From NCBI GenBank assembly GCA_963781885.1, contig CAWAHW010000002.1:512001-576000 (forward strand): 64,000 nt of DNA. Reading direction: 5' to 3'. Of this stretch, positions 8,698-33,348 are shown piece by piece (within the stretch, counting starts at the first letter, position 1; each line of letters opens with the position of its first letter). Made by a program: the position numbers and the translations under genes. The DNA comes from an uncultured Spirochaetota bacterium. Its GTDB lineage: Bacteria; Spirochaetota; Spirochaetia; SZUA-6; Fen-1364. The notes under the pieces are model-generated. The model ran no database searches. It was not told the DNA's origin and saw only the letters and a program-made list of their open reading frames with translations.

Positions 8698-8714
8698 GGA
8701 CATTTCTAAAGAGT
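8698..8714 (+). promoter_or_regulatory. 17-bp island motif, copy A: GGACATTTCTAAAGAGT
   Basis: One of six near-identical intergenic copies; 29 bp upstream of an extended -10 (TGC-TACACT, hexamer at 8744-8749) before the uxaE-like gene. Confidence 0.8.
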
Positions 8715-8759
8715 ATCCCCTCCCCACGGCCCGGCCTCCCTGCTACACTTCCCGGGGCC

Positions 8760-10460
8760 ATGCTCTTCGGAAAGTTTGACATCAATCCATCCACATCTCC
8801 CGGTGTGCTCGATACCGCCACGTGGGACCGCGCGGCTGCCGCGGCGGAGATACACCGGCACCGGGAGCGCTGGGCGTCCCTGTCGGATGCCGTCGGGGAT
8901 GCCGCCACCTCGCGTCGACCGGGAACACCCGAGGCGACCGTCATCAAGGTGTCCGGGTCCTCGCGCGAGGTGATCGCGCTTGCCGCCCTTTCCGACGGGC
9001 AGCGGGTCTTCCTCCAGATCGGTGGACTTTCGAAGGGCAGCGATCTCGGGCGCCCCTTCTTCCAGCTCCAGCTCCGCGAAAAACTCCTCCTGGCCGCCTA
9101 CCCCGCGGACGCGGCGGTGATCGATCGTTTCTGCACGACGCTTGCGCTTTCCAACGGGCCGCGCGCACTCGGTGGAACGCCGAGGCTGGGAATCGGCACG
9201 CGCATGACGACGCGGCTCTGGCCGGGCATATTCGCCGCCATGCAGCGGCACGGCTTTGCAGCGAATGCCATCCAGAACTCCGTGCGGGAGCTGAACCTTC
9301 TTTCGGATTTGACGAGCGGAGCCGCCCCCGAGCGCAACTACGCGAGCGGTTTCGGCACGATCGAAAGCGGGTACACGGGAAGCACATTCGAGGGCCTCTG
9401 GGTGGCGGGAGTCCTGGCGGCCCTGGAGTACGCGCATCCCCTGACCTATGGGGCGGACGCGGATCACATCCAGGTCAAGCGCGCCGACACCGGTCTTGCC
9501 CGCGCGCGGCGCGTGGTCGATGCCGCCCGGTACTACACGTTCTTCACGCTCGACGTGGCCGACGTGCTGGCCTACGACGCCATCGGTCGAACCGGTGCGG
9601 GCGACGAGCTTCTGCGTCAGAGCATCCCGGCGGACAAAGAGCGGCGCGACGTGCTTTCTTTCCATCGCCAGGCCTCCGGAGACGATCCGGACCTCATCGG
9701 CAGATGCGTGGGGAAGTTCTGGAGGGCGCTCGATGCCGCCGCTCGGCTTGCGGACCACATCGCAGCGTTGCGGGGCGCGGCGGGCTTCGACCTGGAGTTC
9801 GCGTTCGACGAGCACCCGCCCGAAATCGCGGGTCCGGCGTGCATCAGCAGCGACCAGGAGGTGGCATTCGTCGCCCGCGAAATCCGCAGGCGCGGCCTGC
9901 CGGTGACGCATATCGCGCCGAATTTCGGGGTCGAAAAGGGCTTCGACTATCGCCTTGCCGACGGCTATGCGGGACTCTCGACGCGCGTGGCGTCGCATTT
10001 CCGCATCGCCGAGGAGACAGGCTTTCTCCTGGACGTGCATTCGGCCGACGACCTCTCGGGCGAGGCGCGGCGCGCGATCCGTGGCGCCACGGGGGGCAGG
10101 ATGCACTTCAAGATCTCCCCCATGCTCCATTTCATCTTTGCCGAGACCGTGCGCGACAGGCATCCCGATCTCTTCCGCCGCTGGTGGGAGGACTGCCGGG
10201 CCTATGCCATGGAGGAAGCCCAGCGCGGATCCGCATTCGCGGCGGAATGTCTTGCACAGCTCCCCGCGCAGGCGGCGCCGTCACCCACGCAGGACGTCTT
10301 CCGCCATTTCTTTTTTGCCTATCCCGGTCGGCGCGACAGCGCGGGGCGTTTCATCAACCGCGAGGCATTCTACACGCTGCCGGCCGACACCTATGCCGAT
10401 TACCAGGAGAGGATCGCGGCCCACCTGGGCATGCTCGCGGAGGACCTCTTCAATTCCTAG
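8760..10460 (+). CDS. Tagaturonate/fructuronate epimerase (UxaE) family protein
   Basis: PRLGIGTR, QNSVREL, GADADH, FTLD, HSADD and HFKIS motifs; start placed at ATG 8760. Confidence 0.7.
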   Translation: MLFGKFDINPSTSPGVLDTATWDRAAAAAEIHRHRERWASLSDAVGDAATSRRPGTPEATVIKVSGSSREVIALAALSDGQRVFLQIGGLSKGSDLGRPFFQLQLREKLLLAAYPADAAVIDRFCTTLALSNGPRALGGTPRLGIGTRMTTRLWPGIFAAMQRHGFAANAIQNSVRELNLLSDLTSGAAPERNYASGFGTIESGYTGSTFEGLWVAGVLAALEYAHPLTYGADADHIQVKRADTGLARARRVVDAARYYTFFTLDVADVLAYDAIGRTGAGDELLRQSIPADKERRDVLSFHRQASGDDPDLIGRCVGKFWRALDAAARLADHIAALRGAAGFDLEFAFDEHPPEIAGPACISSDQEVAFVAREIRRRGLPVTHIAPNFGVEKGFDYRLADGYAGLSTRVASHFRIAEETGFLLDVHSADDLSGEARRAIRGATGGRMHFKISPMLHFIFAETVRDRHPDLFRRWWEDCRAYAMEEAQRGSAFAAECLAQLPAQAAPSPTQDVFRHFFFAYPGRRDSAGRFINREAFYTLPADTYADYQERIAAHLGMLAEDLFNS

Positions 10461-10470
10461 GAGGCAGGCC

Positions 10471-11148
10471 ATGCAGGTATTTCTGGACAGCGCAGACCCT
10501 CGGGAGATCGTGCAGGCGCGCACATGGGGCGCCATTGACGGAGTGACGACCAACCCGTCCCTGATTTCCCGCGCCGGCCCCGACATGCAGAAGACGCTGC
10601 GGGCCGTGCTGGATGCATCGCCGGGACCCGTGCTCTGCCAGGCCATCGGGTGGGACGATCCTGATTCACTTTCGGGTCAGGCGCGTTGGCTGCACGCCTT
10701 TTCCGACCGCATCATTGTGAAGCTCCCGATGAGCCCGGCCGGCATCATGGCGGTCCAGAAGCTGAAGCGGGAATCACCGGGCATGAAGATCGCCGTCACG
10801 CTCGTCTCATCCATCGCCCAGGCGTACCTCGTGGCAAAGGCGGGCGCGGATATCGTGGCGATATTCAATGGGCCGCTGGAGCAGGCGCTGGACCAGGACG
10901 TGGACCTTGTCGCGCCCGTGCGCACGATGTACGCGAACTACGGCTTCGCAACGAAGATACTTTCGTGCGGACGCTACCCCCGATCCTTCGGGGACTTCGC
11001 GGTGGCCGGGACGGACATCTGCACCATGCGCTTCGAGTTCCTCACGCTTCTCTACGAGCATCCTTTCACGGAGAAGCGCATGCGCGGCTTCATGGACGAC
11101 TGGCGGAAGGTTTTCGCCGATCGGACGTGGCCGGTCGCGGGCGCCTGA
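10471..11148 (+). CDS. Transaldolase / fructose-6-phosphate aldolase family protein
   Basis: MQVFLDSA, GVTTNPSLI, Schiff-base IVKLP, HPFT; RBS GGAGG. Confidence 0.85.
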   Translation: MQVFLDSADPREIVQARTWGAIDGVTTNPSLISRAGPDMQKTLRAVLDASPGPVLCQAIGWDDPDSLSGQARWLHAFSDRIIVKLPMSPAGIMAVQKLKRESPGMKIAVTLVSSIAQAYLVAKAGADIVAIFNGPLEQALDQDVDLVAPVRTMYANYGFATKILSCGRYPRSFGDFAVAGTDICTMRFEFLTLLYEHPFTEKRMRGFMDDWRKVFADRTWPVAGA

Positions 11149-11149
11149 G

Positions 11150-11932: not shown

Positions 11933-11938
11933 GCGGCG

Positions 11939-12793
11939 TCATCCCTTGAGGCCGGTCGTCGCCATTCCCTGGATGATCCGTCTCTGGAATATGTAGTAGA
12001 AAATGACCTGGGGGATCAGGACGATGATGACCGCGCGCATGACGGCCGCCACGTCCATCCCGTACTGCTGCTTGAAGAAGGCCGCCGCGAGCGGGATCGT
12101 GAAATTCCTGATATTGCTCAGGATGACCGATGCCAGCGTCCACTCGTTCCAGGCCCAGATGAAATTGAAGATGATGAGCGTCGTTATCACCGGCGCGATC
12201 AGGGGGGCGACGATCCCGAAGATCAGCTTGGGGAGGCGGCATCCATCCATGATCGCGGCCTCTTCCAGCTCCAGGGGAACCGACTTGAGACCGCCGACGA
12301 AGACAAGCGTGTTGAAGGGCAGCGATCCCGCGATATAGGGAAGAGGGAGGCCGAAGATGCTGTCGATGCCAAGGCCGATTGGCTTCAGCTTGAGCGCGAG
12401 CAGGTAGATCGGGAAAAGGACAATGAAAAGGGGAACCGCATTGCCCATCAGGAAGAGGAAATAGAAGAAGTTGCCGAATGCGGCGTGCCGGTGGTGCAGA
12501 CGGGCGATGGCGAACGAGCTCAGGAAGTTGATCAGGATGCAGCCGATCGTCGTGAGGGAGGCCACGATCACGCTGTTCTTGAACAGCGTGGGCATATGGG
12601 ACTTCGAGAAGGTGTCGGCGTAGAGGGAGAGGTCCCATTTGTTCGGCAGGCTGAGCGGCGCGTTGTAGATTTCGGTGTTTCCCTTGAAGGAGAGGATGAA
12701 GCCCCAGACGAAGGGAAAGATCATGAAGGCGCAGATGATGAGGGAAACGAGGATCAGCAGCAGGCGCGTCGGGATTGTGGTGCCACTCGACAT
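11939..12793 (-). CDS. Carbohydrate ABC transporter permease
   Basis: EAA motif ELEEAAIMDGC, WAWNEW, FQRRIIQG. Confidence 0.9.
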   Translation of the reverse strand: MSSGTTIPTRLLLILVSLIICAFMIFPFVWGFILSFKGNTEIYNAPLSLPNKWDLSLYADTFSKSHMPTLFKNSVIVASLTTIGCILINFLSSFAIARLHHRHAAFGNFFYFLFLMGNAVPLFIVLFPIYLLALKLKPIGLGIDSIFGLPLPYIAGSLPFNTLVFVGGLKSVPLELEEAAIMDGCRLPKLIFGIVAPLIAPVITTLIIFNFIWAWNEWTLASVILSNIRNFTIPLAAAFFKQQYGMDVAAVMRAVIIVLIPQVIFYYIFQRRIIQGMATTGLKG

Positions 12794-12802
12794 GTTCTGC
12801 TC

Positions 12803-13756
12803 CTACGCCTCGACCCGCTTCGCGGTGATCCGCAGGAATCCAATGGAAAACACCATCATGACCAGGAACATGAGCAGCGCGACGGCCGATGCGTAGCCCG
12901 CCCTGCGCTCGGCGAGAAATATGTCGTACAGGAGGGTGCCGATATTGTGCGACTTGAAGTTCGGCTGGCCGTTGGTCAGGATATAGACGGTCTGCATGCT
13001 CTGGATGGCGTTGATGAAGACGTACACCGCGACGATCTTCAATGTCTCCTTGAGCATCGGCAGCGTGATGTAGCGGGTCTTCTGGGCCGAAGAGGCGCCG
13101 TCCATCTTCGCCGCCTCATAGAGCTCGGTCGGTATCAGCTTGAGACCGGCAAGAAAGAGCACCGAATAGAAGCCCAACGCTTTCCAGCTCTCGATGACGG
13201 CCACCGTGTAGGGTGTCAATGTCGGCCCGCCGATCCACTTGAAGGCAAGAAAGCCCATGTGATTGGCCTTGAGGAAGATGTTGAGCAGGCCGATCCCCGG
13301 ATCGACGACGAAGAACCATACGAGCGTGGTGATGATGGGCGATAGGATATAAGGCGTGAAAACCAGGAGCTTCACGACGCCGTTTCCCCGGAAATCCCTG
13401 TTGATGAAGAGCCCCAGCAGGAATGAAACGGGGAGGATGAGGGCAAGCTCGAGCACGGTGATGATGAGCGTATTCTTCAGCGCGATGGAGAGGTGGCCGT
13501 CGCTTGCCATCGATACGAAGTTGGCCACCCCGACAAACTTGCCGGGATAGAAGCTCGACTTGTCCGTGAATGCGATGGCCAGCGAGTAGACGATGGGATA
13601 CAGCACGTAGACGCAGAAAAATGCCAGGGAGGGAAGGAGCAGGAGGAGCTTTATCCACCGCTTGCAGTACATGAACACCGATGTCCTCCTCTGTTCTCCC
13701 GCGGCGGCCATTCGCGAGAGAGCCGAATCCTTGCGGATTCGGCTCTCGTTCATCAA
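12803..13756 (-). CDS. Carbohydrate ABC transporter permease
   Basis: ELYEAAKMDGAS, ITLPML, FVGVANF, GYASAVA. Confidence 0.9.
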   Translation of the reverse strand: MMNESRIRKDSALSRMAAAGEQRRTSVFMYCKRWIKLLLLLPSLAFFCVYVLYPIVYSLAIAFTDKSSFYPGKFVGVANFVSMASDGHLSIALKNTLIITVLELALILPVSFLLGLFINRDFRGNGVVKLLVFTPYILSPIITTLVWFFVVDPGIGLLNIFLKANHMGFLAFKWIGGPTLTPYTVAVIESWKALGFYSVLFLAGLKLIPTELYEAAKMDGASSAQKTRYITLPMLKETLKIVAVYVFINAIQSMQTVYILTNGQPNFKSHNIGTLLYDIFLAERRAGYASAVALLMFLVMMVFSIGFLRITAKRVEA

Positions 13757-13775: not shown

Positions 13776-15119
13776 CTATTTCGGCAGCTTGGGGATTACC
13801 TCGTCGATGGCGGCATCCATCTTGGCGAGCTCGCCCGGGATGTCGGCCGCGGTCATGGAGCCGTTCATGAGGCTGTTCTCCAGGTTGCCGCGGATCGTTC
13901 CCCAGCCCTGGGTCCACAGGTCACCGTTGGAACTCCACTGCCAGTAGGGCGCGTAGTCGGAGTTCATAAGACCTGTATAGGACTTATCCTGGATCATCGC
14001 AACCTGCTGCTTCATGATCGGTCCGAGGCCCGACATGTCGATCTTCACGTTCACGGGCATGATCGTGCCGACCTTCAGTGCGAGCTGTGCTCCTTCCGAG
14101 CTGTAGCGCCACTTGTTGAAGGCGACGATGGCCTTGAGCTTGTCCGGATCACTGGCGGCAGTCGCGCCGATCCCGAATGCGTTCCCGACCGACCGGACGA
14201 TCCGCTTCTGGTTGTACTTCTTCGCCACCGGGTCGGTGAAGGCGAAGCCGAAGTTGAACACGTAGTTCTTCTCCAGCGGCTGGCCGATGATCTTGCCCAG
14301 CTGATCGGAGGGAAGGGTGATCATCGCCGCGTTGCCGGCGTTGAACATGGCGCACATCTGGTCGAAGCTCATGGTGGCGTTGTCCTCGGGGAAGGCCCCC
14401 AGGGCGCGCAGCTCCGCCTCGCGGTAGTATGCCTGGCCGAAATCGGCGTCGACGGCCTTCAATGTGTGGTCCTTGAACACCGCCTTGGCCTGTTCCCAGA
14501 TCCCGTACTGCATGAGCCACGCCTGGTAGCCCCAGACCGCCCATCCTTCCTTGGATCCGTACGCGATCGTCACGACGCCGTTCTTCTTGAACGTCGCGAC
14601 GCAGTTCTTGAGCTGATCGAATGTGGTCGGTATCTTCAGTCCGTACTTGTCAAAGAGGGCCTTGTTGTAGACCCATCCCTGGACCTGCATCTCGGTGGGG
14701 AATCCGGCGATCTTGCCGCCCGCGCTGGTGAGGTTGGTCAAGGCGCCTTCCACGAAGGTTGCCTTGAAGGCCGGGTCATAGAAGGGAGTGCAATCGACGA
14801 CCGACGTGGTCCTGTTGAGGAAGTCGACTAGGTGGGTTCCGTTGTCCCAGAACATGTCGGGCATGGAGTTGGACTGGGCCATGATCTCAAGCTTCTGCTG
14901 CAGGGTGTCGTGGTCCACGATCTGGTAATCGACGGAGATGTTGGGGTACTTCTTCATGTAGGTATCGAGTGTCACCCCGACCATGTCCGTTTCCCGGCCG
15001 ATGAAAGTCATGTAGCTGAAGTTTACCTTCTTTGTGGTTCCCTGTGCCTGCGCCCCGACTGTGGCGGAAAGCGTCACAAGGCACAGCAGGACCAAGAGAG
15101 CGGTGACGAGTTTTTTCAC
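13776..15119 (-). CDS. Carbohydrate ABC transporter substrate-binding protein
   Basis: Signal peptide, YNKALFDKYGLKIPTTFDQL; strong RBS AGGAGG before GTG. Confidence 0.88.
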   Translation of the reverse strand: MKKLVTALLVLLCLVTLSATVGAQAQGTTKKVNFSYMTFIGRETDMVGVTLDTYMKKYPNISVDYQIVDHDTLQQKLEIMAQSNSMPDMFWDNGTHLVDFLNRTTSVVDCTPFYDPAFKATFVEGALTNLTSAGGKIAGFPTEMQVQGWVYNKALFDKYGLKIPTTFDQLKNCVATFKKNGVVTIAYGSKEGWAVWGYQAWLMQYGIWEQAKAVFKDHTLKAVDADFGQAYYREAELRALGAFPEDNATMSFDQMCAMFNAGNAAMITLPSDQLGKIIGQPLEKNYVFNFGFAFTDPVAKKYNQKRIVRSVGNAFGIGATAASDPDKLKAIVAFNKWRYSSEGAQLALKVGTIMPVNVKIDMSGLGPIMKQQVAMIQDKSYTGLMNSDYAPYWQWSSNGDLWTQGWGTIRGNLENSLMNGSMTAADIPGELAKMDAAIDEVIPKLPK

Positions 15120-15300: not shown

Positions 15301-15328
15301 ATCCTAAATCATCGCCCCCCATTGTCAA
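15301..15328 (-). promoter_or_regulatory. Predicted sigma70 promoter of the sugar ABC operon
   Basis: TTGACA (15328-15323), 16 bp spacer, TAGGAT (15306-15301). Confidence 0.6.
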
Positions 15329-15345: not shown

Positions 15346-15362
15346 ACTCGATAGAAATGTCC
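15346..15362 (-). promoter_or_regulatory. 17-bp island motif, copy B: GGACATTTCTATCGAGT
   Basis: 17 bp upstream of the TTGACA of the sugar ABC promoter. Confidence 0.8.
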
Positions 15363-15391: not shown

Positions 15392-15408
15392 GGACATTTC
15401 AATCGAGT
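15392..15408 (+). promoter_or_regulatory. 17-bp island motif, copy C: GGACATTTCAATCGAGT
   Basis: Back-to-back with copy B; 38 bp upstream of a candidate -10 TAAGGT (15447-15452) before eda1. Confidence 0.8.
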
Positions 15409-15493
15409 CCGCGCGCCGATTCTTGATGACGGCGAGCCTCCGGCATTAAGGTGAGCCGAGCTTCCGCGTCACGACGCGATCGGGGGGAACATC

Positions 15494-16147
15494 ATGGGAA
15501 TGAAAAGGGACGTCCTGGACGCCCTGCACGAAAGCGGCGTCGTCGCCGTCATCCGCACGGAGAATCCACGCGACCTCGCGGCGGTGGCGCGTGCGCTGCA
15601 CGCCGGCGGGGTGCGCTGCGTCGAAATCACGATGACCGTGCCCGGCGCGCTGGACATCATCCGCGACGCCTGCGCCACGCTCTCCGGCATCGACGTGTTC
15701 ATCGGGGCGGGCACGGTGCTCGACGCGGTGAGCGCGCGGGCGGCCATCATCGCGGGGGCCCGGTTCGTCGTGGGTCCCGGCTTCGACCCGGAGATCGTGA
15801 AGACGTGCGCCCTGTACGGCGTCATGAATATGCCGGGCGCCTTCACACCGCAGGAGATCCTCTCCGCCTGGAAGGGCGGTGCGGACGTCGTGAAGGTGTT
15901 TCCGGCCGATCTTGGCGGTCCGGATTACATCAAGACGGTGCGCGAGCCGCTTCCCCAGATATCGCTCCTGCCGACAAAGGGCATCGACTTTTCCACCGCG
16001 GGGGCCTATATCAAGGCAGGTGCCTTTGCCGTCGGGGCGGGCGGCGCGCTGGTGAGCAAGGCGCTTATTGCCGCGGGGGACTACGATCGGATCACCGCCA
16101 ATGCGCGCGAGCTCGCCCGGATCGTGCGCGAGGCGAGGAAAGGGTAG
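15494..16147 (+). CDS. eda: KDPG/KHG aldolase (copy 1)
   Basis: VVAVIR, EITMTVPGA, IGAGTVLD, VKVFPA. Confidence 0.88.
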   Translation: MGMKRDVLDALHESGVVAVIRTENPRDLAAVARALHAGGVRCVEITMTVPGALDIIRDACATLSGIDVFIGAGTVLDAVSARAAIIAGARFVVGPGFDPEIVKTCALYGVMNMPGAFTPQEILSAWKGGADVVKVFPADLGGPDYIKTVREPLPQISLLPTKGIDFSTAGAYIKAGAFAVGAGGALVSKALIAAGDYDRITANARELARIVREARKG

Positions 16148-16151
16148 GCCG

Positions 16152-17195
16152 ATGAAGCAGGTTGCAACGGACCGCACGGTCGTGCTTTTCGGCGAGCTCA
16201 TGATGCGCCTGTCCACGAAGGGGCACGAGCGGCTCGTGCAGGCGCGCGAGTTCGACGTGATCTACAGCGGCGCGGAGGCGAATCTCGGCGTTGCCCTCAC
16301 CGGCTTCGGCGTGGAAAGCTTCATGGTGTCGAGCGTTCCCGACAACCCCGTCGGGCAGGCCTGCCTGAACTACATGCGACAGTTCGGTCTCAACCTGGAG
16401 CACGTCCGCCGCAATGGCCACCGCCTCGGCATCTACTTCGTGGAGACGGGGGCTGCGCAGAGGCCTTCCACCTTCCTTTACAACAGGGCCGGCAGCTCCA
16501 TCACGGAGTTGCGAAAAGGCGATATCGACTGGGCCCGCATCTTCCAGGGCAAGAGCTGGTTCCATTTCACGGGCATCACTCCCGCGCTTGCAAACAGCGT
16601 CGCCGACATCACCCGCGAGGCCTGCGCGGCGGCGGCAGCGGCGGGCGTGACGGTGAGCTGCGACCTGAACTTCCGCCGCAAGCTCTGGTCCCCGGAGAAG
16701 GCGCGCGCCGTGATAGAAGGGCTCATGGAATACGTTGACGTGCTCTTCACGAACGAGGAGGAGGCGGAGACGGTATTCGGCATTGCGGCACGGGGCAGCA
16801 ACGTGAAAGCGGGCACCATCTCGGCGCATGGATACGAGGACGTCGCGGTACAGCTCAAGGAGCGTTTTCATCTGGGCTATGTCTCCATCACGCTGCGGGA
16901 AAGCATCTCTGCGACGGCGAACAACTGGTCGGGCATGCTCTACGACGGCGCGCGGTTCTACACCAGCCGCACGTACCACATGGACCACATCGTGGATCGC
17001 ATCGGCGGCGGAGACGCCTACTCATCGGGCATCATCTACGGGCTCCTGACGGGTCAGGACCTCCAGGAGAGCGTGGAGTTCGCCGCGGCTGCATCGTGCC
17101 TGAAGCATACAATTCCCGGCGATTTCAACCTCGTCACCTTTGACGAAGTGCTCGCGCTCATGAAGGGCGATGCATCGGGCCGAATACAGCGCTGA
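16152..17195 (+). CDS. kdgK: 2-dehydro-3-deoxygluconokinase-like PfkB kinase (copy 1)
   Basis: FGELMMRLS, GAEAN, SCDLNFRRKLW, DRIGGGDA, LKHTIPGDFN, GDASGRIQR. Confidence 0.85.
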   Translation: MKQVATDRTVVLFGELMMRLSTKGHERLVQAREFDVIYSGAEANLGVALTGFGVESFMVSSVPDNPVGQACLNYMRQFGLNLEHVRRNGHRLGIYFVETGAAQRPSTFLYNRAGSSITELRKGDIDWARIFQGKSWFHFTGITPALANSVADITREACAAAAAAGVTVSCDLNFRRKLWSPEKARAVIEGLMEYVDVLFTNEEEAETVFGIAARGSNVKAGTISAHGYEDVAVQLKERFHLGYVSITLRESISATANNWSGMLYDGARFYTSRTYHMDHIVDRIGGGDAYSSGIIYGLLTGQDLQESVEFAAAASCLKHTIPGDFNLVTFDEVLALMKGDASGRIQR

Positions 17196-17284
17196 AATAA
17201 GTTTTCTGGCGCCAAAAGGCGACGTTTTGCCTATAATTAAAAGATATTTCGTGAAAAAACAGTGAGAATCTCTCGAAAATAATC

Positions 17285-17323
17285 TTGTTAACAATTGACA
17301 GATGACAGTTAATGATTTATCCT
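17285..17323 (+). promoter_or_regulatory. Predicted sigma70 promoter of the transposase-derived gene, with an abutting palindrome
   Basis: TTGTTAACAA palindrome (17285-17294), TTGACA (17295-17300), 17 bp spacer, TATCCT (17318-17323), within an AT-rich intergenic stretch. Confidence 0.65.
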
Positions 17324-17381
17324 GCTTCCTCGATTGAACAAGTTCCCTTTTTACACGGATGTCCGTGGGGAGGCAGTTGCC

Positions 17382-18542
17382 GTGAGTGAGAACGAGAACA
17401 TGCGTGCAATGATTCTCAACGGTGTGGTGAGCGGCGCCATGTCGCTCGACCAGGCAACGCAGATCCTCAATCTCTCCTATAGGCAGATGAAGAGGGTCTG
17501 GAAGCGTTTCCGCGAAGAAGGCGAGACGGGTCTGGCTCATCGTAACAAAGGTAGGCCTTCAAACAGGGCATTCGTCGATCAGCTCAAGCGCGACATTCTG
17601 CAGAAGTACGCCCGCGTGGGACAAGGCCTGGGGCCGACGCAATTCTCGGATCGCCTTGCGGCTGAAGGCATCTTTGTCGACCATGAGACGCTTCGGCGCT
17701 GGCTGCTGCAGAACGGCGCCTGGAAGCTTTCGCGGAACAGGGCGGTGCGGCCGGTGGAAGTGCGCACGAGCGGCTTCGGAGAGCTCCTCAATCTCGTGTC
17801 CTTCCACGGGTGCTGGCTCGGGGAGACCGTCGCACCCTGCTTCCTGGTCTGTCTGCGCGATGAGGCGACCGGCTACACACTCTGCTCCGCGAGCAGGGAC
17901 GAAACGAGTGAGACCGCCATGCGCCTCCTTCGGGCATGGATCGAGCGCCACGGCATTCCCGCGGGAATCCGCTGCCAGAGGCGTTTCCTCTTCGCGGAGA
18001 ACCGCCACCCGACGCTCGAGCAGCAGCTCTGCGGCGGCGGCGCCCTCACGGCGCTGAGCCGGTCCTTCGATCGGCTGGGCATCGAATCGGGAACGCTGTC
18101 CCCGTCACAGACGAAAGCCATCCTGAACGACATGCTGCCCTTCCTCGACGCCATGAAGGCGATGGTGGCGCGCAGCGGCGCGATCGGCATCGAGCAGACC
18201 ACGGCGTTCCTGCTGGGAGCGGCAGCGGACGAATTGAATGGGAGGTTCGCGGCAGGCCATGCGGAGGCGGACGACTACCACGTGCCGATTGTCGATGGCA
18301 CCGACCTGCGCAGGTTCCTCTGCGTCGACCAGGAGTGCCGCGTCAGCGCGCAGGGCATCGTCGAGCTCGGGCACCGGCGATTCCGCATCATGAACGGGGG
18401 GGCCATGGGCGTAAGGCATCTTCAGCGGGTCGTCGTTTCGGAGTGGCTCGACGGATCGGTGCACATCCTCTGCCAGGGGCGGGAGATCACCTTCCTCGAG
18501 ACCAGGCCGGCGCAACCTTGCATCGATCGTCTGGCAATGTAG
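17382..18542 (+). CDS. ISNCY/IS1202-type transposase homologue with intact HTH region and degenerate DDE triad; candidate domesticated DNA-binding regulator
   Basis: N-terminus LNLSYRQMKRVWKRFREEGETGLAHRNKGRPSNR and ETLRRWL; integrase-core landmarks GELLNL..DEATG, HGIPAG, PTLEQQL, LGIE...SPSQTK and EWLDGS. The expected catalytic D/D/E positions are substituted. GTG start with GGGAGG RBS; no terminal repeats seen. Confidence 0.8.
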   Translation: MSENENMRAMILNGVVSGAMSLDQATQILNLSYRQMKRVWKRFREEGETGLAHRNKGRPSNRAFVDQLKRDILQKYARVGQGLGPTQFSDRLAAEGIFVDHETLRRWLLQNGAWKLSRNRAVRPVEVRTSGFGELLNLVSFHGCWLGETVAPCFLVCLRDEATGYTLCSASRDETSETAMRLLRAWIERHGIPAGIRCQRRFLFAENRHPTLEQQLCGGGALTALSRSFDRLGIESGTLSPSQTKAILNDMLPFLDAMKAMVARSGAIGIEQTTAFLLGAAADELNGRFAAGHAEADDYHVPIVDGTDLRRFLCVDQECRVSAQGIVELGHRRFRIMNGGAMGVRHLQRVVVSEWLDGSVHILCQGREITFLETRPAQPCIDRLAM

Positions 18543-18566
18543 AAATACCAGTCCAAGGAGTCGAAA

Positions 18567-19223
18567 ATGGCGATTCGCTCACAGGAAGTCCTCGCGGCAC
18601 TCGAGGAAACAGGTGTCGTGGCGGTGATCCGGGTCGAAGACCCCGAGGGCCTCGCCGATGTCTCGCGCGCCCTGTGCGCGGGCGGCGTGCGCCTGGTGGA
18701 GATCACGATGACGGTCCCCGGTGCTCTCGCGCTGATCGCCTCGGTGAGCGCATCGCTCGGGAATGCCGTGTTTATCGGCGCCGGCACCGTCCTGGACGCG
18801 GCTGCCGCGCGCATGGCGATACTCGCCGGCGCGCGTTTCGTCGTCGGGCCCAGCTTTGACCCTGACGTCGTGGCCATGTGCAAGCTCTACGACACGCCCG
18901 TCATGCCGGGCTGCCTCACGCCGACGGAGATCGCCGCGGCGTGGAAGGCGGGCGCCGACGTCGTGAAGATCTTCCCCGGCCGGGTGGGCACCCCCGAGTA
19001 TTTCCAGGACCTCAAGGGCCCCTTCCCCCAGGTGAGGATGATGCCCACGGGCAATGTCGACGTCGTGACGACGCCCGCGTACATCAAGGCGGGCGCGGTT
19101 GCCGTCGGCGTCGGAAAAGCGCTCGTCGACCCGCGCGCCATGGCGGCGCGCCAGTACAAGGTCATCACCGACAATGCCATCGCGTTCCGACGGCTCGTGC
19201 AGGACGCGCGGAGCCGCACCTGA
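18567..19223 (+). CDS. eda: KDPG/KHG aldolase (copy 2)
   Basis: VVAVIR, EITMTVPGA, IGAGTVLD, VKIFPG, MPTGNV. Confidence 0.88.
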   Translation: MAIRSQEVLAALEETGVVAVIRVEDPEGLADVSRALCAGGVRLVEITMTVPGALALIASVSASLGNAVFIGAGTVLDAAAARMAILAGARFVVGPSFDPDVVAMCKLYDTPVMPGCLTPTEIAAAWKAGADVVKIFPGRVGTPEYFQDLKGPFPQVRMMPTGNVDVVTTPAYIKAGAVAVGVGKALVDPRAMAARQYKVITDNAIAFRRLVQDARSRT

Positions 19224-20251: not shown

Positions 20252-20327
20252 AAGGGGTCACCGCGCAGGCTCGAAGCCTGCCATGGGCTAAAGGCACCGG
20301 CCGCTGACGGCAGGGGAGGAGAAACCA

Positions 20328-23292: not shown

Positions 23293-23317
23293 TTGTGTCT
23301 CCTCTCCCCGCGCCGGC

Positions 23318-24445: not shown

Positions 24446-25533
24446 GGTGTTCGATCTCCTCTTTTTCGTGTCAGGGACGGCGATGCCCCCATCATGCGCG
24501 CGGCGAGGTGCTCGATGGGTGTTCGCGGTCCCCGGAAAAATCGCACGGTGCTCACGTCGTCGTACCGGTTTCTGCCGGTGTCCCCGCCGATGGCGGGCGC
24601 GTGATACTCCAGCTCGCTGAAGCTGCCCAGGGCCGCATTGTTCACGGCGCATGCCTGCACGGCGCAGGCGGGCGGACCGGATCGCGGCGTGTCGATGTAG
24701 AGGAGACCCGGGTCCACCGCGAAATCCCGCACGATGAGATCGGCGCGCCCGCCGTTCCCGTGCAGGTAGCCCACGCGACCCGTGACCGATTCAGGGGGCA
24801 GCCCGATCTTCTTGTCTCCCTGTCCCCGCATCGCCCACTGGACGAGCGCCTGCTGCCGCCCCACGTCCTCCGCGGGGATGAGACCGAAAAAAAGGACCGG
24901 TTCGGGGCGATCTTTCACGCCGAAGAGCATCACCCCGCCGTGGGGAAGCTGCAGGAGGTTCCAGAGCCCCACGGGGGTGCGCGGCGCGAGCTGCGTGACC
25001 TCGAGGGTGCAGCGCAGGGTGTAGCCGCAGGACAGGATCCCCTGCACCGGCAGATCGTTGCGCACGGCATCCGGGTCCATCGCTTCGACGCTTTTTGAAA
25101 GCGACAGCCCGACATCCTCGGCTGTGCGAAACGAGTGGAGGGAGAAGGAGGTGGACATGACCAGGCGTGTCGCCTCCCGGCGGCAGGTGAAGCTGCCGGG
25201 ATCGAATACGCGGGGCTGGAAGTAGCCTTCCTCCCTTGGGTAGCGCGGGAGGAAGAAATCCGCTTCGGGTGCAATCCAAGTGCGGTCACCGCCGGTATTG
25301 CACCATGCGCCTGATTCGAAGAGACGGCGCGCGCTGTCCGTCCGGTCCAGCGCGGAATTGTTCCAGAGGAAGCCCTCCTCCTCGGTTCCGGGAAAGACGC
25401 CCAGCACGCGCGCCCCATGGGGGAGCACGACGACGCGTGCGCCGTCCGGTGCACGGAGGATCTCGGCGGGCTTGCCTGCCTCGGCCAGCCGCGCGGCCAG
25501 GGCGGCGGTAGCCCCGTCAGACTTTGACGCCAT
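24442..25533 (-). CDS. Conserved hypothetical protein (DUF6786-like)
   Basis: Coupled to both neighbours; NTGGDRTWIAPE and FSELEYHAP motifs; family call is tentative. Confidence 0.55.
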   Translation of the reverse strand: MASKSDGATAALAARLAEAGKPAEILRAPDGARVVVLPHGARVLGVFPGTEEEGFLWNNSALDRTDSARRLFESGAWCNTGGDRTWIAPEADFFLPRYPREEGYFQPRVFDPGSFTCRREATRLVMSTSFSLHSFRTAEDVGLSLSKSVEAMDPDAVRNDLPVQGILSCGYTLRCTLEVTQLAPRTPVGLWNLLQLPHGGVMLFGVKDRPEPVLFFGLIPAEDVGRQQALVQWAMRGQGDKKIGLPPESVTGRVGYLHGNGGRADLIVRDFAVDPGLLYIDTPRSGPPACAVQACAVNNAALGSFSELEYHAPAIGGDTGRNRYDDVSTVRFFRGPRTPIEHLAARMMGASPSLTRKRGDRTP

Positions 25534-27323: not shown

Positions 27324-27351
27324 ACACTATTCCAACAGCCCCGAATGTCAA
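27324..27351 (-). promoter_or_regulatory. Predicted sigma70 promoter of the FAH-to-DHDPS operon
   Basis: TTGACA (27351-27346), 16 bp spacer, TAGTGT (27329-27324). Confidence 0.55.
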
Positions 27352-27367: not shown

Positions 27368-27384
27368 ACTCTATAGAAATGTCC
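27368..27384 (-). promoter_or_regulatory. 17-bp island motif, copy D: GGACATTTCTATAGAGT
   Basis: 16 bp upstream of TTGACA; same geometry as copy B. Confidence 0.8.
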
Positions 27385-28025: not shown

Positions 28026-29270
28026 TCAGGTGCCGGCCAGCCAGGAATACGGCTTCTCGATGGAGTCTTTCACACTCCGCAGGAAGCGCGCCGCCGGCGC
28101 CCCGTCGACAAGGCGGTGGTCGAATGTCAGGCTCAGCACGACCATGCGTCGTATGGCGACCGTTCCCGCATCCGCATCGGTGACGACCTGCCGGGCGACG
28201 ATGCGCCCCACGCCGAGCACGGCGCATTCCGGCAGGTTGATGATCGGTGTGAATGCATCGATGTCGTAGGCGCCGAGATTCGTGATTGTGAATGTCCCGC
28301 CGCGCAGGTCCTCTGCCGCCACGCGGCCCTCTCGGGTCGCCTCCACAAGGTGCGCGGAGACTTCAGCGATCTGTCGCAGACTCTTTCCCTGCACCGACCT
28401 GATCACGGGGACCAGGAGGCCTCGCTCCGTGTCGACCGCGAGCCCCACGTTCACCTCGGGCGGCCGCACGATCTCGTTACCCTCGAGGCGCGCATTGCAC
28501 GCGGGGTGCTCCCGCAGCGCGCGGGCCGCGATGAGGATGAGCATGTCATTGTAGGTCGGCACGACGGGCGCGCCTTCCTTCTTGAACATCGCGCGCAGCC
28601 GTACCATCTCCGTGGCATCCGCCTCCGTGGTGAGCGTCACCGCCGCGGTGGTCTGCGCGCTTGCGGCCATCCTCTGCGCGATCACCCGGCGCGGGCCGCT
28701 GATCGGCGCTGCGGCTGCGGGCACGGGGCCTGCGGCAGCCCCAACGTCCGCGCCGGCCCGCGCGGCCTGCCGCACGTCGCGTTCCACGATGCGGCCCGTC
28801 CGGCCCGAACCGCCGAGTGTCTCCCAGGCCACGCCCAACTCCCCGGCGACGCGCTTTGCGCGCGGGCTGATGGCGGGACGCCCGGTCTGTGTCGGGGCGG
28901 CGCGCGGTATTGCCGCCGCGGCGGTTGGGGCGGCCGCAGGCGCGGCAGCGGCGGGCGCGGGGACAGCGATTTCCGCCGGGGCTTCGGTGGCGGCAGGCGC
29001 GCCCGCCGGCTTCGGTTTGGCTTCACCCGGCGCGAGCAGATAGGCCAGAAGCGTGCCGACCGGCACCGCCTTTCCCTTGGGAGGGCATTCCGGGGGGATA
29101 TAGAGGATGCCGCTTTCCAGAGCCTCACACTCCTGGATCGCCTTGTCGCTCTCCACCTCGAAGAGGATCTCTCCCGCCGTGACGGTGTCGCCCTCGTTTT
29201 TGCGCCAGCCGGCGAGCGCCCCCTCCTCCATGTTCCACCCCAGGCGGGGCATCACGATTTCGAATGCCAT
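28026..29270 (-). CDS. Dihydrolipoamide acyltransferase (E2)
   Basis: Lipoyl domain VESDKA, Ala/Pro linker, E3-binding ISPRAKR..GSGRTGRI, catalytic DHRLVDG. Confidence 0.9.
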   Translation of the reverse strand: MAFEIVMPRLGWNMEEGALAGWRKNEGDTVTAGEILFEVESDKAIQECEALESGILYIPPECPPKGKAVPVGTLLAYLLAPGEAKPKPAGAPAATEAPAEIAVPAPAAAAPAAAPTAAAAIPRAAPTQTGRPAISPRAKRVAGELGVAWETLGGSGRTGRIVERDVRQAARAGADVGAAAGPVPAAAAPISGPRRVIAQRMAASAQTTAAVTLTTEADATEMVRLRAMFKKEGAPVVPTYNDMLILIAARALREHPACNARLEGNEIVRPPEVNVGLAVDTERGLLVPVIRSVQGKSLRQIAEVSAHLVEATREGRVAAEDLRGGTFTITNLGAYDIDAFTPIINLPECAVLGVGRIVARQVVTDADAGTVAIRRMVVLSLTFDHRLVDGAPAARFLRSVKDSIEKPYSWLAGT

Positions 29271-29283
29271 CCCATGCCCCCGA

Positions 29284-30266
29284 TCACTCGGCCAGCAGGT
29301 CGCGCACCGCCTTCACCACGGTGCGTGTCTCCGGAACCACGTCCTGGAAAAGGGAGGGGCTGTACGGAGCGGGGCAGGAGAGCCCCGTGAGCCTCGCCAC
29401 CGGCGCGTCAAGGTCGTCGAAACCCTTCTCCATCACCTGCGTGGCGATCTCCGCCGCCGCGCCGCACGGAGCGAAGTCCTCGTCCACCACGAGCAGCCGG
29501 CCCGTCTTTTCACGGACGTGAGGACGGTGTCGATGTCAAGCGGCGCGAGGCTGCGCGGATCGATCACTTCGATGCTGATTCCTTCCTTGGAAAGCTCCTC
29601 AGCCGCCTCGAGTGCCTTCTTCACCATGAAGGCGATCCCGACCACGGTTGCATGCGTGCCTTCCCGCGCAACCGCCGCCTTTCCGAACGGCACGAGGTGC
29701 TCGCCGTCCGGCACGGGCCCCTTCAGGTTGAGCAAATTCTTGTGCTCCAGGAAGAGGACCGGGTCGTCGCATCGGATGGACGTCTTGAGGAGCCCTTTTG
29801 CGTCGGCGGGCGTGGTCGGCATGACGACGCGAAAGCCGGGCACATGCATGAAGAAGGGGTAGTAGTTGCCCGAGTGATGCGCCGCGTTGAAGGGCGCGAC
29901 GCCGACGCATCCGCGCACGACAATCGGCATCTTCAGGCGCCCGCCGCTCATCCACTGGAGCTTCGCCATCTGGTTGAACATGTCGCCGAAGGCGTCGGTG
30001 AGAAAGTCGATGAACATGAAATCCACGATCGGCCGCGCGCCGCTTGCCGCCGCGCCGGTGCACAGGGCGGTGAAGCCGCGCTCCGAGATGGGGGTATCGC
30101 GCAGGCGCTCTTCTCCATAGAGGGCGTGGAGGCCGACGGTCGTATTGAAGTTGCCGCCCCGCGCCCCGATGCCTTCGCCCACCACGAAGATCCGGGAGTC
30201 CCGGGCCATTTCCTCTGCAAGACCCTCGCGGGCCGCGTCGACAAAGCTCATTTCGCGCATCTGCAT
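29284..30266 (-). CDS. TPP-dependent 2-oxoacid/acetoin dehydrogenase E1 beta subunit (apparent frameshift near 29507)
   Basis: DTPISE, DDPVLFLEHK, EVIDPRSLAPLD. The C-terminus (DEDF..DLDAPVARL) lies in another frame; adding one base to the T4 run restores VKKTGRL. Confidence 0.82.
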
Positions 30267-30267
30267 C

Positions 30268-31255
30268 TCATCCTTCGGCGTACACGTGACTCATGACCGA
30301 TCCGGGCTCGGGCAGGGGGCTCGCCAGCGCAAAGGCAGCCGCCTCCTCCGCCATTTGCTTCACCTCGGCATCGATGGCGTCCAGCTCTTTCTTCGTGGCC
30401 ACCGCGCCGGCGACGATCTTCGCCCCCAGCAGCCCGATCGGGTCACGGCTCTTCCATTCCGCGACCTCCTCCTGCGTGCGGTAGCCGGCGTCGCGCATGC
30501 CTTCAGAGTGCGCGCGCGTGCGGTAGGTCTTGCATTCGATGAGGGTCGGACCCTCTCCGGCGCGTGCGCGCCGGACCGCCTCCCCGGCCGCCTGCCAGAC
30601 CGCGAGCACGTCGTTGCCGTCCACCTCGACGCCGGGAAGCCCATAGGCCGCGGCGCGCGACGCGACGCTGGTGTTCTTCGTCGCCTTTTTGTACGGCACC
30701 TCGGTGGCGTACATGTTGTTCTCGCAGACGAAGATCGGCGGGGATGTCCCACGCCGCGGCGAGATTGATGCCCTCGTGGAAGGAGCCATTGTTTGTCGCC
30801 CCGTCGCCAAAGAAGGCCACTCCGACGCGGTCGATTTTCAGGATCTTCGCCGCATAGCCGGTGCCCGCGGCAAGGGTGATGCTGGGTCCGACGATGCCGC
30901 TGGAGCCCATGAACCCTATTTCCGGCTTGAAGATGTGCATGCTCCCGCCGCGGCCGCCCGAGCAGCCGGTCGCCCTGCCGAGCACCTCGGCAAAAAGCTC
31001 GCGCGGCGGCACGCCCTTGGCCAGCGCGTGCCCGTGGCCCCGGTGCGTGCTGAATACGCAGTCATCGCTTCGCAGGTGCGCGCAGACCCCGGTGGCGACC
31101 GCCTCCTCGCCGATGTAGGTGTGCACGCCGCCGTACAGCTTGCCCGCCGCATACATCTTCACGAGCTGCTCTTCACAGCGACGAAGGACGAGCATCGTGC
31201 GGTACAGGGCGAGCATCTGTTCCTTGGTGAGAGCGGGTATCTTTTTCTTGGCCAT
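30268..31255 (-). CDS. TPP-dependent dehydrogenase E1 alpha subunit (apparent frameshift near 30740)
   Basis: HTYIGEEA, STHRGHGH, GRGGSMH, GDGATNNGSFHE in one frame; IFVCENN, VDGNDV, KTYR and RDPI in the next. Confidence 0.82.
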
Positions 31256-31290
31256 TCCGGCGTTCCTCCCGGGCTTCGTGCCCGCAGATT

Positions 31291-32109
31291 TCAGTTGATC
31301 TTCGTGACGCCGGCCTGGCCGCCGGCGTTCATGGCGGTGTTGCCGCCGTCGAAGGGGAAGAGGACGCCCGTGATCCAGGCGGATGCGTCCGACGCGAGCA
31401 GCAGCGCGATGCCCTTCACGTCCTCCGGCTGCCCGAATCTGCCTATGGGGATGCCCTCCTGCATACGCTTTTCGATCTCCGGATTCGCCGCCCATAAGCC
31501 CTGGAGGCCGGCGTTGGTGACCTGCGCGGGAAGGATCGCGTTCACGCGGACGCCGCGCCCGGCCCATTCGGTGCTCAGCTCCCGGGTCATCTCCGCGACG
31601 GCGCCCATGCCGACGCTGTAGGCGAAGTTGCCGCGGCCCAGCGCGGTGAGGCTCGCGATGGAGCCCATCATGATGATGCTGCCCTTGCCCTGTCTCAGCA
31701 TCCGGTGACCCGCCTCCTGCGCGCAGCAGAAGCGTGCAACGGTGAGACCCATGACGACCTGCTGGTAGTGCTCAAGGTCGATCTCCTCCGCCGAGCAGCG
31801 GTAGCCCGGGCCGACGAGCGCGGCGCAGATGTCGATGCGGCCGTATTCCTTGTCCAGTGCCGCGTAGACCGCCTTGATGTCCTCCACCTTTGTCATGTCG
31901 CCGGGCACGACGAGCACCTTGCGCCCGAGTTTTTTCGCATAGTCGGCAGTCGCCGCAATGCCCGCCACGTTGCTGTGCCGGGGAAGGAGCAGGTCCGCCC
32001 CCGCCTCTGCAAACGCCATCGCCATTGCCTGGCCCATGCCCGATGCGGCCCCGGTGACGAGGGCGACGCGGCCGTGTAAGTCAAACATGTCCAGTACCGT
32101 GCGCGCCAT
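31291..32109 (-). CDS. SDR-family oxidoreductase
   Basis: TGAASGMG, YSVGM (atypical YxxxK), VRVNAI, FDGG; ATG 32109 with GGAGG RBS. Confidence 0.82.
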   Translation of the reverse strand: MARTVLDMFDLHGRVALVTGAASGMGQAMAMAFAEAGADLLLPRHSNVAGIAATADYAKKLGRKVLVVPGDMTKVEDIKAVYAALDKEYGRIDICAALVGPGYRCSAEEIDLEHYQQVVMGLTVARFCCAQEAGHRMLRQGKGSIIMMGSIASLTALGRGNFAYSVGMGAVAEMTRELSTEWAGRGVRVNAILPAQVTNAGLQGLWAANPEIEKRMQEGIPIGRFGQPEDVKGIALLLASDASAWITGVLFPFDGGNTAMNAGGQAGVTKIN

Positions 32110-32182
32110 GGTGTACCTCCGCGTATTGTATGCTCGGTGACGGAACAATGCTAAGGTAGCCAAAGCGATTTGCCCACGCAAG

Positions 32183-32199
32183 GGACAATTCTAAAGAGT
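32183..32199 (+). promoter_or_regulatory. 17-bp island motif, copy E: GGACAATTCTAAAGAGT
   Basis: In the divergent intergenic region between the SDR/E1/E2 operon and a UroD-fold gene. Confidence 0.75.
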
Positions 32200-32227
32200 C
32201 GGCCAGGAAATCCCGGAGGAGGCCTCC

Positions 32228-33301
32228 ATGACTTCGCGCGAAAGGGTCCTTTCCGCGCTCCATCACGTCCAGCCGGACGTCACACCCTGCGACTATTTCT
32301 CCACGCCGGAGATACAGCGCGGTCTCCTGGATCGCCTGCGTGTCTCGTCGGAGGAGGCGCTGCTGGACCGGCTGGGGGTGGACATCCGCTACGTCGCGCC
32401 GCCCTACACGGGACCGCGGCTTCCCTCCTACGATGACGGCTCGGAGACGGACATATGGGGGATCCGCAAGAAGCCGATGCCGAACGACTACGGCGATTAT
32501 GCGGAGCCCGTGGGACTTCCCTATGCGGGCTGGACCACGGTGGAGGAGGCCGCGGTTTTTCCCTGGCCGAGCCCGGACTGGTACGACTATTCTGCAATGC
32601 CCGCCCTCTGCGCGCGCTATCCCCATCGTGCCGTGGCGGTCGGCGGCTTCGGGATACAGGATTTCATCAACGGCACCGCATTTGGGCGCGGCGTGGAGCA
32701 GGTGCTTCTCGATATCGCCCTCGATGACCCGGTGTACCTCTTCATCGTGGAGAAAAGGCACCGTTTCGCCCTCCAGCACATCGACAGGATACTCACGGCG
32801 GCAAAGGGAAGGATCGACCTCGTCCTCTGCGGCGATGATTTCGGCAGTCAGCGCGGCACGCTCATCTCCCCGACGTCCTTCGACACCCTGTTCGCGCCGC
32901 GCAAGAAGGAGTTCTTCGACATGGTCCATTCCCACGGCGCGAAGGTCACGCATCACTGCTGCGGATCCAGCCGCGCGTTCTTCCCCCGGTTCATTGCGCT
33001 GGGCATGGACAGCATCCAGACGATACAGCCGCGCGCCGAAGGCATGAACCCCTACACGCTCAAGGCGGAGTTCGGCGGCCGCATCTGCCTGCACGGGGCG
33101 GTGGATGTCCAGGGATGGCTGCAGCACACGAAGCCCGACATGATCCGAAGCGAGGTGCACCGGCTCATGGACGAGGTGGGCAGCGGCGGCGGGTACATCC
33201 TCGCTCCCAGCCACAACCTGCAGCCGGACACGCCCATCGAAAACGTGCTGGCCGTCTATTCCGCCGTGGCCGAGCGCCGGGGCGACCCGAAGCTCGCGTA
33301 G
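32228..33301 (+). CDS. Uroporphyrinogen decarboxylase-fold protein
   Basis: MTSRERV, DIWG, GDDFGSQ, HHCCG, GGYILAPSHNLQPDTP. Confidence 0.85.
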   Translation: MTSRERVLSALHHVQPDVTPCDYFSTPEIQRGLLDRLRVSSEEALLDRLGVDIRYVAPPYTGPRLPSYDDGSETDIWGIRKKPMPNDYGDYAEPVGLPYAGWTTVEEAAVFPWPSPDWYDYSAMPALCARYPHRAVAVGGFGIQDFINGTAFGRGVEQVLLDIALDDPVYLFIVEKRHRFALQHIDRILTAAKGRIDLVLCGDDFGSQRGTLISPTSFDTLFAPRKKEFFDMVHSHGAKVTHHCCGSSRAFFPRFIALGMDSIQTIQPRAEGMNPYTLKAEFGGRICLHGAVDVQGWLQHTKPDMIRSEVHRLMDEVGSGGGYILAPSHNLQPDTPIENVLAVYSAVAERRGDPKLA

Positions 33302-33331
33302 GAAAGCGGGCGCGCGCGAAGGTCGCCGAGA

Positions 33332-33348
33332 GGACATTTCAAAAGAGT
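33332..33348 (+). promoter_or_regulatory. 17-bp island motif, copy F: GGACATTTCAAAAGAGT
   Basis: 20 bp upstream of TTGACA (33369-33374) before the LDH2 gene. Confidence 0.8.

Follow-up and report, generated by a model that had tools for sequence, protein, structure and literature searches.

The window analysed in this work is a stretch of 64,000 nucleotides from a genome of an uncultured Spirochaetota bacterium (contig CAWAHW010000002.1, positions 512,001 to 576,000). Genes were called by third-position GC content and domains were assigned by Pfam and NCBIfam scans. According to these calls, approximately 27 kb of the window constitute an island that is sugar-acid catabolic by its gene content. 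The first part of the island carries, in this order, a UxaE-like gene, a short-chain dehydrogenase/reductase (SDR) gene, a sugar ABC transporter, two KDPG-aldolase/PfkB-kinase pairs, another SDR gene and a DHDPS-like aldolase gene. Two URO-D/MtaA-like genes, a DUF6786 gene and the genes for a 2-hydroxyacid dehydrogenase, a FAA-family hydrolase and a YhcH-family protein follow in the middle, and the end is formed by an acetoin-type E1/E2 set with an SDR gene, a third URO-D-like gene and the genes for an Ldh_2 dehydrogenase, a GntR/FadR-type regulator and an MBL-fold protein. We focused on two features of this island: six copies of a 17-bp motif (the 17-mer), and a gene located between the two aldolase/kinase pairs whose product is a homologue of the transposases of insertion sequences (IS) of the IS1202/ISNCY_2 type; this homologue has lost the catalytic triad of two aspartates and one glutamate (DDE).

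A sequence-only reading of the window had described the motif as a non-palindromic 17-mer present in six copies, confined to the island and marking most of its transcription units. The degenerate pattern derived from the six copies, GGACAWTTCWAWMGAGT, was searched across the window on both strands and matched at exactly six sites, with no match in 100 dinucleotide-preserving shuffles. The same six sites, and no others, were obtained when up to three mismatches to copy 1 were allowed (0.02 expected), and a weight matrix built from the copies gave them scores of 29.6 to 32.3 bits, the next-best site of the window reaching 11.6 bits. The six positions and strands reported earlier were thus recovered by the pattern, mismatch and matrix scans, which also agreed with the view that such a set is unlikely to arise by chance. 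Thirteen of the 17 positions are invariant, as had been stated, the variable ones being positions 6, 10, 12 and 13, and purines occupy both bases 5' of every copy. The asymmetry invoked in that reading to set the motif apart from GntR, LacI and IclR operators was equally evident, a count by eye giving self-complementarity at just 8 of the 15 central positions. All copies lie between 8.7 and 33.3 kb of the window, and the association with most transcription units of the island, together with the confinement to it, held within these 64 kb. Sites for sigma-54 (GG-N10-GC), ECF-type sigma factors (GGAAC-N16-CGT), integration host factor and LysR (T-N11-A box) were compared with the motif by eye, on the basis of their consensuses, and none of them fitted.

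The six copies coincide with the promoter regions of six transcription units (Table 1), promoters being assigned as consensus matches to sigma70-like hexamers. Under our gene calls all copies were intergenic, in accordance with the earlier description, with caveats at two sites: copy 1 falls within the longest reading of the open reading frame (ORF) 8619-10460, 5' of its likely start, and copy 5 is placed between an SDR gene, whose most likely start is the ATG at 32109(-), and the URO-D-like gene starting at 32228(+). The statement that each copy points to an adjacent gene was true and nearly uninformative, because five of the six copies are found in divergent intergenic regions, where either orientation faces a gene. 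The informative regularity was a -35-like hexamer 14 to 20 nt downstream, in motif orientation, at four of the six copies (3, 4, 2 and 6), in a window that contains only 14 TTGACA on both strands. At these four promoters the centre of the site is located about 25-31 bp upstream of the centre of the hexamer, in fixed orientation; should these hexamers be genuine -35 boxes, the centre of the site would fall at approximately -58 to -64. Copy 5 lies so near the ATG of the URO-D-like gene that it must overlap or abut the core promoter of that gene.

Table 1. Positions in the window of the 17-mer copies, the candidate regulator gene and other features of the island and its surroundings.
Feature	Position	Strand	Context	Promoter-like sequence or remark
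17-mer copy 1	8698-8714	+	GGACATTTCTAAAGAGT; divergent region between Liv-type binding-protein gene 7408-8553(-) and UxaE-like gene ~8822-10460(+)	TTGACA 61 nt downstream, 8776-8781
17-mer copy 2	15346-15362	-	Faces sugar ABC transporter operon: binding protein 13776-15119, permeases 11939-13756, all (-)	TTGACA 17 nt downstream, 15323-15328(-); sigma70-like match TTGACA-16-TAGGAT
17-mer copy 3	15392-15408	+	Faces operon 15494-21155(+): KDPG aldolase, PfkB kinase, candidate regulator, aldolase, kinase, SDR	TTGATG 14 nt downstream, 15423-15428
17-mer copy 4	27368-27384	-	Faces operon 27281-21199(-): FAA hydrolase, 2-hydroxyacid dehydrogenase, DUF6786, two URO-D-like, DHDPS-like	TTGACA 16 nt downstream, 27346-27351(-), then 16 nt, then TAGTGT
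17-mer copy 5	32183-32199	+	GGACAATTCTAAAGAGT; 28 nt 5' of ATG of URO-D-like gene 32228-33301(+); also upstream of divergent SDR/E1/E2 operon	Minus-strand promoter-like match TTAGCA-18-TACAAT, 32154-32125
17-mer copy 6	33332-33348	+	Faces operon ~33411-36023(+): Ldh_2 dehydrogenase, GntR, MBL-fold	TTGACA 20 nt downstream, 33369-33374
DDE-less homologue of IS1202/ISNCY_2 transposase (candidate regulator)	17382-18542	+	386 aa; database entry P0121	Most likely GTG start 17382, in ORF 17334-18542
Spacer directly upstream of candidate regulator gene	17196-17381		186 bp	GC 0.39
Sigma70-like promoter of candidate regulator gene	17295-17323	+	Without motif copy	TTGACA, 17 nt, TATCCT; read from sequence
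KDPG-aldolase/PfkB-kinase pairs	15494-17195, 18567-20251	+	Flank candidate regulator gene	
URO-D/MtaA-like proteins (three)	22147-24652(-), 32228-33301(+)			
DUF6786 protein	24442-25533	-	In sugar-acid island	
UxaE-like ORF	8619-10460	+		Weak Pfam match, 42 bits
GntR/FadR-type gene	34542-35253	+		Continuous only with a one-base frame shift near 34960
Palindrome GTCAATGATTGAC	33361-33373		Overlaps -35-like TTGACA of Ldh_2/GntR operon	Perfect, 13 bp
Split E1 genes	28026-32109	-	E1 alpha 30268-30810 and 30503-31567; E1 beta 29433-30266	
Split UvrD-like helicase gene	52296-55440	-	52296-53936 and 53656-55440	

Public genomes were scanned for exact matches to the pattern GGACATTTCWAWMGAGT, in which position 6 is fixed to T and 14 of the 17 positions are fixed; the variant of copy 5, GGACAATTC, lies outside this pattern. 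Matches were obtained in at least 124 stretches, of which 122 loci were stored, and the counts that follow refer to the loci listed. Hosts among the matches listed comprised Acidobacteriota, Verrucomicrobiota, Spirochaetes, Kiritimatiellae, Dehalococcoidales, Gemmatimonadota, Acidimicrobiia, Planctomycetota, Hydrogenedentota and others. Among 144 distinct instances, 57 were inner (followed by a second copy), 51 were terminal (with TTGACA within 2 nt), 2 were variants and 34 were classed as other, the last being mostly in AT-rich DNA and likely due to chance; in 110 of the 144 instances the pattern of the window matched the inner and terminal repeats of the element ends. Partner copies started 26 nt away in 28 of 36 cases, and past the terminal TTGACA the contigs of the same genome diverged. 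The match was less than 200 nt from a contig end in 58 of the 122 loci and was directed into the contig in 56 of those 58, which is the signature of a multicopy element breaking assemblies.

Complete elements were 1.4-1.6 kb long and presented TGT...ACA termini, two motif copies per inverted end and a transposase of about 400-450 aa between the ends. The end at the gene-start side reads TGTTGAAACTC...GGACA-type repeat, with the repeat present twice, and at the other side the repeat, again present twice, is followed by cTTGACA. Target duplications of 17 bp (locus L002) and 16 bp (L069 and L074) were found, and the transposase of L002 scored 401.2 bits against the NF033594 model (transpos_ISNCY_2). 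The ISTde1 subgroup of the IS1202 family is described with repeats of 16-17 bp, TGT termini and hosts among Acidobacteria, Gemmatimonadetes, Chloroflexi and others (bioRxiv 10.1101/2022.12.17.520857). The element carrying the motif fits this subgroup of the IS1202 family (formerly ISNCY): the 16-17 bp duplications, the TGT termini and the host range match. We infer that the 17-mer is the transposase-binding repeat of IS1202-family element ends. The idea of an island-specific regulatory motif, put forward in the sequence-only reading with the binder left unnamed, stood as regards the regulatory-type placement of the copies and failed as regards specificity, the same motif occurring in many phyla as an IS-end repeat; the abundance of matches in unrelated loci, which that reading had held to count against its proposal, reveals instead the origin of the motif. 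A CRISPR repeat or a sequencing adapter was ruled out, since the copies in the window lie well inside a long contig and the IS ends repeat the motif only twice, with a period of 26 bp, and enclose a transposase gene in inverted arrangement.

In the DNA flanking the right ends of the elements (L002, L069, L074/L075, L025, L042 and others), 16 of 56 distinct flanks had a TTGAC immediately following the target duplication, at a distance of exactly 16 or 17 nt from the terminal TTGACA, and L074/L075 corresponded to two tandem element copies with a common 16-mer, cccgccaaaacagtga. Judging from these flanks, the insertions seem to be directed to positions immediately upstream of -35-like sequences or of ends that resemble those of the element itself. 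Relics of such an element would accumulate upstream of promoters, and the six copies could accordingly be regarded as inert remains of past insertions of the IS, or of miniature derivatives of it, near promoters, the DDE-less gene being a decayed transposase. The motif is indeed an IS-end sequence, and copies 2 and 3, which are inverted with respect to each other and 29 nt apart, recall a collapsed element. We nevertheless consider this explanation unlikely, because a core subject to neutral decay would not have been left intact on six occasions: the 17-bp core alone survives, near-perfect, at all six places, and both the second copy expected 9 nt away and the terminal hexamer expected 1 nt away are absent from all of them. 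No target duplication of 16-17 bp was noticed on reading the flanks of the six copies or of the island gene, a direct-repeat search not having been run.

The gene in the middle of the island, labelled as a transposase, had been passed over in the sequence-only reading, and its product, a catalytically dead homologue, is likely the binder of the motif. The protein was 35% identical to the transposase of L002 over 377 residues (E 4e-65) and scored 156.7 bits against NF033594, under the curated cut-off of 250. The catalytic D, D and E, which sit in the blocks LVQxDGS, LYxDxKN and GRVER of the IS-borne transposases and were kept in 12 of the 12 that were aligned, are replaced by V, Q and N in the island protein, where both the N-terminal helix-turn-helix region and the complete transposase fold are retained. 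Identity to DDE-intact proteins was highest in residues 1-125 (43%) and fell to 32% in the core and to 25% in the C-terminal part, and 32 of the 51 residues conserved in both DDE-less and DDE-intact groups were located in residues 1-125. The AlphaFold2 model (mean predicted local distance difference test score of 85.3) displayed helix-turn-helix domains, an RNase-H-like core and a C-terminal beta domain, and its best matches in the Protein Data Bank were IS21 IstA (E 1.8e-12), TnsB, MuA and retroviral integrases. IstA, TnsB and MuA are transposases that bind several repeated sites at the element ends through N-terminal helix-turn-helix domains.

The surroundings of this gene were not those of a mobile element. 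No TGT-type terminal inverted repeats were found around it, the best inverted pair being of 16 nt, 88% identical and partly inside the next gene, and the matrix scan revealed no motif copy within 1.9 kb. The GC content of the gene is host-like (0.64), and the spacer directly upstream is of low GC (Table 1) in a genome of 65% GC. The two flanking aldolase/kinase pairs shared 58% and 56% amino acid identity and about 70% DNA identity; they are old paralogues, possibly for two different 2-keto-3-deoxy sugar acids, and not a duplication made by insertion. A recent insertion of the gene was ruled out on account of this and of the lack of inverted repeats.

Loss of the triad was not restricted to the island protein. 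Among its 120 best homologues listed, the closest 45 (38-100% identity, one of them a fragment) all lacked the triad, and the other 75 all presented D, D and E. In a FastTree phylogeny of 129 rows, the 44 full-length DDE-less sequences formed one split with an SH-like support of 100, which corresponds to a single change of state; the tree was rooted at its midpoint for drawing only, and the direction of the change was inferred from the majority state. Where the catalytic blocks would be expected, the DDE-less clade presents other conserved blocks that are particular to it; LLTLVS and ALRCQRRF are among its shared motifs. DDE-less homologues were on contigs with a median length of 6,953 bp (20 of 45 longer than 10 kb, with maxima above 1 Mb), whereas DDE-intact ones were on element-sized contigs (median 1,797 bp, none of 75 longer than 10 kb; Mann-Whitney P = 3e-8). 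The DDE-less proteins thus appear to be an old, vertically maintained, single-copy clade, presumably under purifying selection, and not a recent dead copy, given the one supported split, the full-length identities of 38 to 86% and the long contigs. A full-length open frame, a clade of 44 members reaching down to 38% identity with conserved motifs of its own, and long single-copy contigs are also unlike dead transposase genes, which further weakens the interpretation of the locus as a set of decayed insertions.

A profile of the clade retrieved 12,731 representatives at E ≤ 0.001 from a library clustered at 50% identity. A rough alignment of the best 150 of these plus the window protein kept DDE in 112 of 151 rows, and about 19 rows were without both aspartates; only the two aspartate columns were used for the latter, the third (E) column being unreliable in this alignment. 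When 72,556 plasmids were searched by tblastn for close relatives without the triad, none of the 4,988 records obtained reached 60% identity; the best ones listed (about 30%) were ordinary ISNCY transposases, and no locus suited to a comparison of gene context emerged. One member of the clade is named 'helix-turn-helix domain-containing protein [Spirochaetia bacterium]' by NCBI.

Contigs of identical size were reported four times for a DDE-less homologue and for a relative of the DUF6786 protein of the island: 325,510 bp (P0123 and P0021, respectively), 14,977 bp (P0144 and P0003), 60,423 bp (P0160 and P0036) and 10,597 bp (P0385 and P0002). The identity of the DDE-less protein across these cases went from about 86% down to 38%. 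Equal contig sizes thus suggest that the DDE-less factor and the island travel together.

Considering the motif and the protein jointly, we think it probable that a domesticated transposase acts as the transcription factor of the island and that the six solo 17-mers are its operators. An IS1202-family transposase would have lost catalysis while keeping its end-binding domain and its fold; the resulting DDE-less protein would bind the six solo 17-mers at the promoters of its own island, and this binding would control the transcription of the island operons. Insertion of the ancestral element just upstream of a -35-like TTGAC could have seeded the regulon. The more extended history, in which an IS1202-family DDE transposase became a transcription factor through an ancient domestication, end repeats of the element survived as its operators, and factor and sugar-acid island travel together across phyla, seems to us evenly balanced between being right and being wrong.

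Binding of the motif by another factor has also to be weighed, either the GntR/FadR-type regulator of the island or a factor encoded elsewhere, the likeness to IS ends then reflecting shared DNA ancestry only. Sugar-acid loci are commonly controlled by GntR or FadR regulators, and a gene of the GntR family is present at the island end, in the operon preceded by copy 6. This possibility is nonetheless very doubtful, as the motif is asymmetric and without the GT...AC dyad typical of FadR-type operators, the frame of the GntR gene is broken near 34960, and in IS elements the motif co-occurs with the transposase and not with GntR genes. The palindrome GTCAATGATTGAC would moreover be a better candidate for a GntR operator.

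As regards this palindrome, a regular-expression search identified it as the sole match of the window to the form GTCAA...TTGAC, and from its sequence it is plausibly the operator of the GntR protein. In the GntR/FadR-type gene itself, the part encoding the FCD domain is in another frame, which runs to the stop at 35253, and the break reflects either a pseudogene or an assembly error.

A protein that binds the motif could also do so for a purpose other than transcription. The copies would then be recombination, synapsis or architectural sites used in rearrangement of the island or in its mobilisation by active relatives, or the protein would confer inhibition of, or immunity to, incoming elements. 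Transposases of the same fold from Mu, IS21 and Tn7 pair element ends, the sites are in both orientations over 25 kb, and the closest protein relatives of the island are in Spirochaetia, Kiritimatiellae and Planctomycetes, therefore indicating horizontal movement. All six sites are in promoter regions, however, and four of them are close to a -35-like hexamer and always oriented in the same way towards it, which neither recombination nor immunity predicts; in addition, no pair of ends bounding the island was found and no duplications were noticed, and the gene is embedded in a catabolic operon. Such non-transcriptional roles are in our opinion improbable.

If the domesticated transposase controls the island, activation appears slightly favoured over repression or looping, because the sites are upstream of -35-like hexamers and in fixed orientation at four promoters. 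Several observations weigh against an activator. The distance from the motif to the hexamer varies (14, 16, 17 and 20 nt, and 61 nt at site 1), so that the spread among the four close sites exceeds half a helical turn and is a poor fit to strict class-I activator geometry; site 5 abuts the core promoter; and a perfect TTGACA forms three of the -35 hexamers, although promoters that depend on an activator do not usually carry one. The perfect hexamers, the variable spacing and the position of copy 5 would rather favour repression or looping. Other points weigh against the proposal of a domesticated regulator as a whole. Active copies of the element may exist elsewhere in the source genome, and their transposase would also recognise the sites; the island contains a second regulator gene, of the GntR type; the linkage between factor and island is based on equal contig sizes; and the picture from other phyla is drawn from exact-pattern sites, with 14 of 17 positions fixed, in at least 124 stretches.

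With respect to known systems, the island shares with the ISTde1 subgroup of the IS1202 family the 17-mer, which is the inner and terminal end motif of the elements, and a full-length transposase homologue with the same helix-turn-helix region and fold. It differs in that the window has neither TGT...ACA repeats nor paired copies 26 bp apart, and the DDE triad is missing; the gene occurs once, within a catabolic operon, and the 17-mers stand singly, dispersed over six promoters. IS21 IstA, MuA and the TnsB of Tn7 and of CRISPR-associated transposons (CAST), the best structural matches, probably resemble the island protein in binding repeated sites, as the two-copy IS ends imply, but they are active enzymes with partner ATPases, whereas the island protein lacks the catalytic residues and has no partner gene adjacent. 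The proposed coordination of several sugar-acid operons by one factor recalls GntR/FadR, IclR-type KdgR and LacI regulators. These are dimers bound to dyad-symmetric operators; here the site lacks symmetry, and the architecture of the candidate binder is that of a transposase.

Eukaryotes provide textbook examples of transposases that were domesticated as transcription factors. FHY3/FAR1 and other eukaryotic factors are reportedly domesticated Mutator-like DDE transposases that retained the DNA-binding domain and regulate host genes; the present case differs in being bacterial and in that the predicted operators match the end repeat of a living element base for base. In bacteria, domestication is documented, to our knowledge, mainly for the RNA-guided TldR proteins derived from TnpB. 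TldR proteins are described as nuclease-dead RNA-guided repressors (PMC10705468), and they are comparable to the island protein in that a transposon protein lost catalysis and was recruited as a bacterial transcription factor; their ancestor is an RNA-guided nuclease and their targets are found through a guide RNA, in contrast with the DDE transposase ancestor and the putative protein-recognised end repeats of the island. Full-text searches, in which subscription journals were largely not covered, yielded descriptions of the IS1202 family, eukaryotic domestications and the TldR repressors, and no bacterial DDE-less IS1202-type transcription factor. The conversion of a transposase into a transcription factor is known, and for a bacterial DDE case with operators equal to the end repeat of a living element we found no report.

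Should the proposal prove correct, the island would constitute a prokaryotic counterpart of the transposon-derived regulatory networks of eukaryotes and would indicate that the ends of mobile elements can serve to wire regulons in bacteria. Consisting of a single protein, one site of 17 bp and six promoters, it would offer a simple experimental system for the transition from transposase to regulator. Genes annotated as 'transposase' or 'helix-turn-helix domain-containing protein' would in turn be flagged as likely regulators of carbohydrate catabolism, in a clade of at least 44 clusters at 90% identity, with about 19 representatives at 50% identity that lack both aspartates.

Other observations concern the rest of the island and its surroundings. 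A homologue search with the UxaE-like sequence 8822-10460 returned nothing, query included, and its true start or frame may differ from the one called. Split genes were observed at two places: within the acetoin-type set, E1 alpha is in two overlapping frames and E1 beta has a truncated C-terminal domain, and further downstream a UvrD-like helicase gene is also divided into two frames (Table 1); these reflect either assembly frameshift errors or gene decay. The genes around the island encode a class III cytochrome c, FliG and aryl-CoA ligases with ACT proteins, in DNA of 65% GC, features that by themselves would suggest a host similar to Desulfovibrio. The island looks horizontally acquired, and the closest relatives of its DUF6786 protein were from Spirochaetia, Kiritimatiellae, Planctomycetes, Omnitrophica and Hydrogenedentes.

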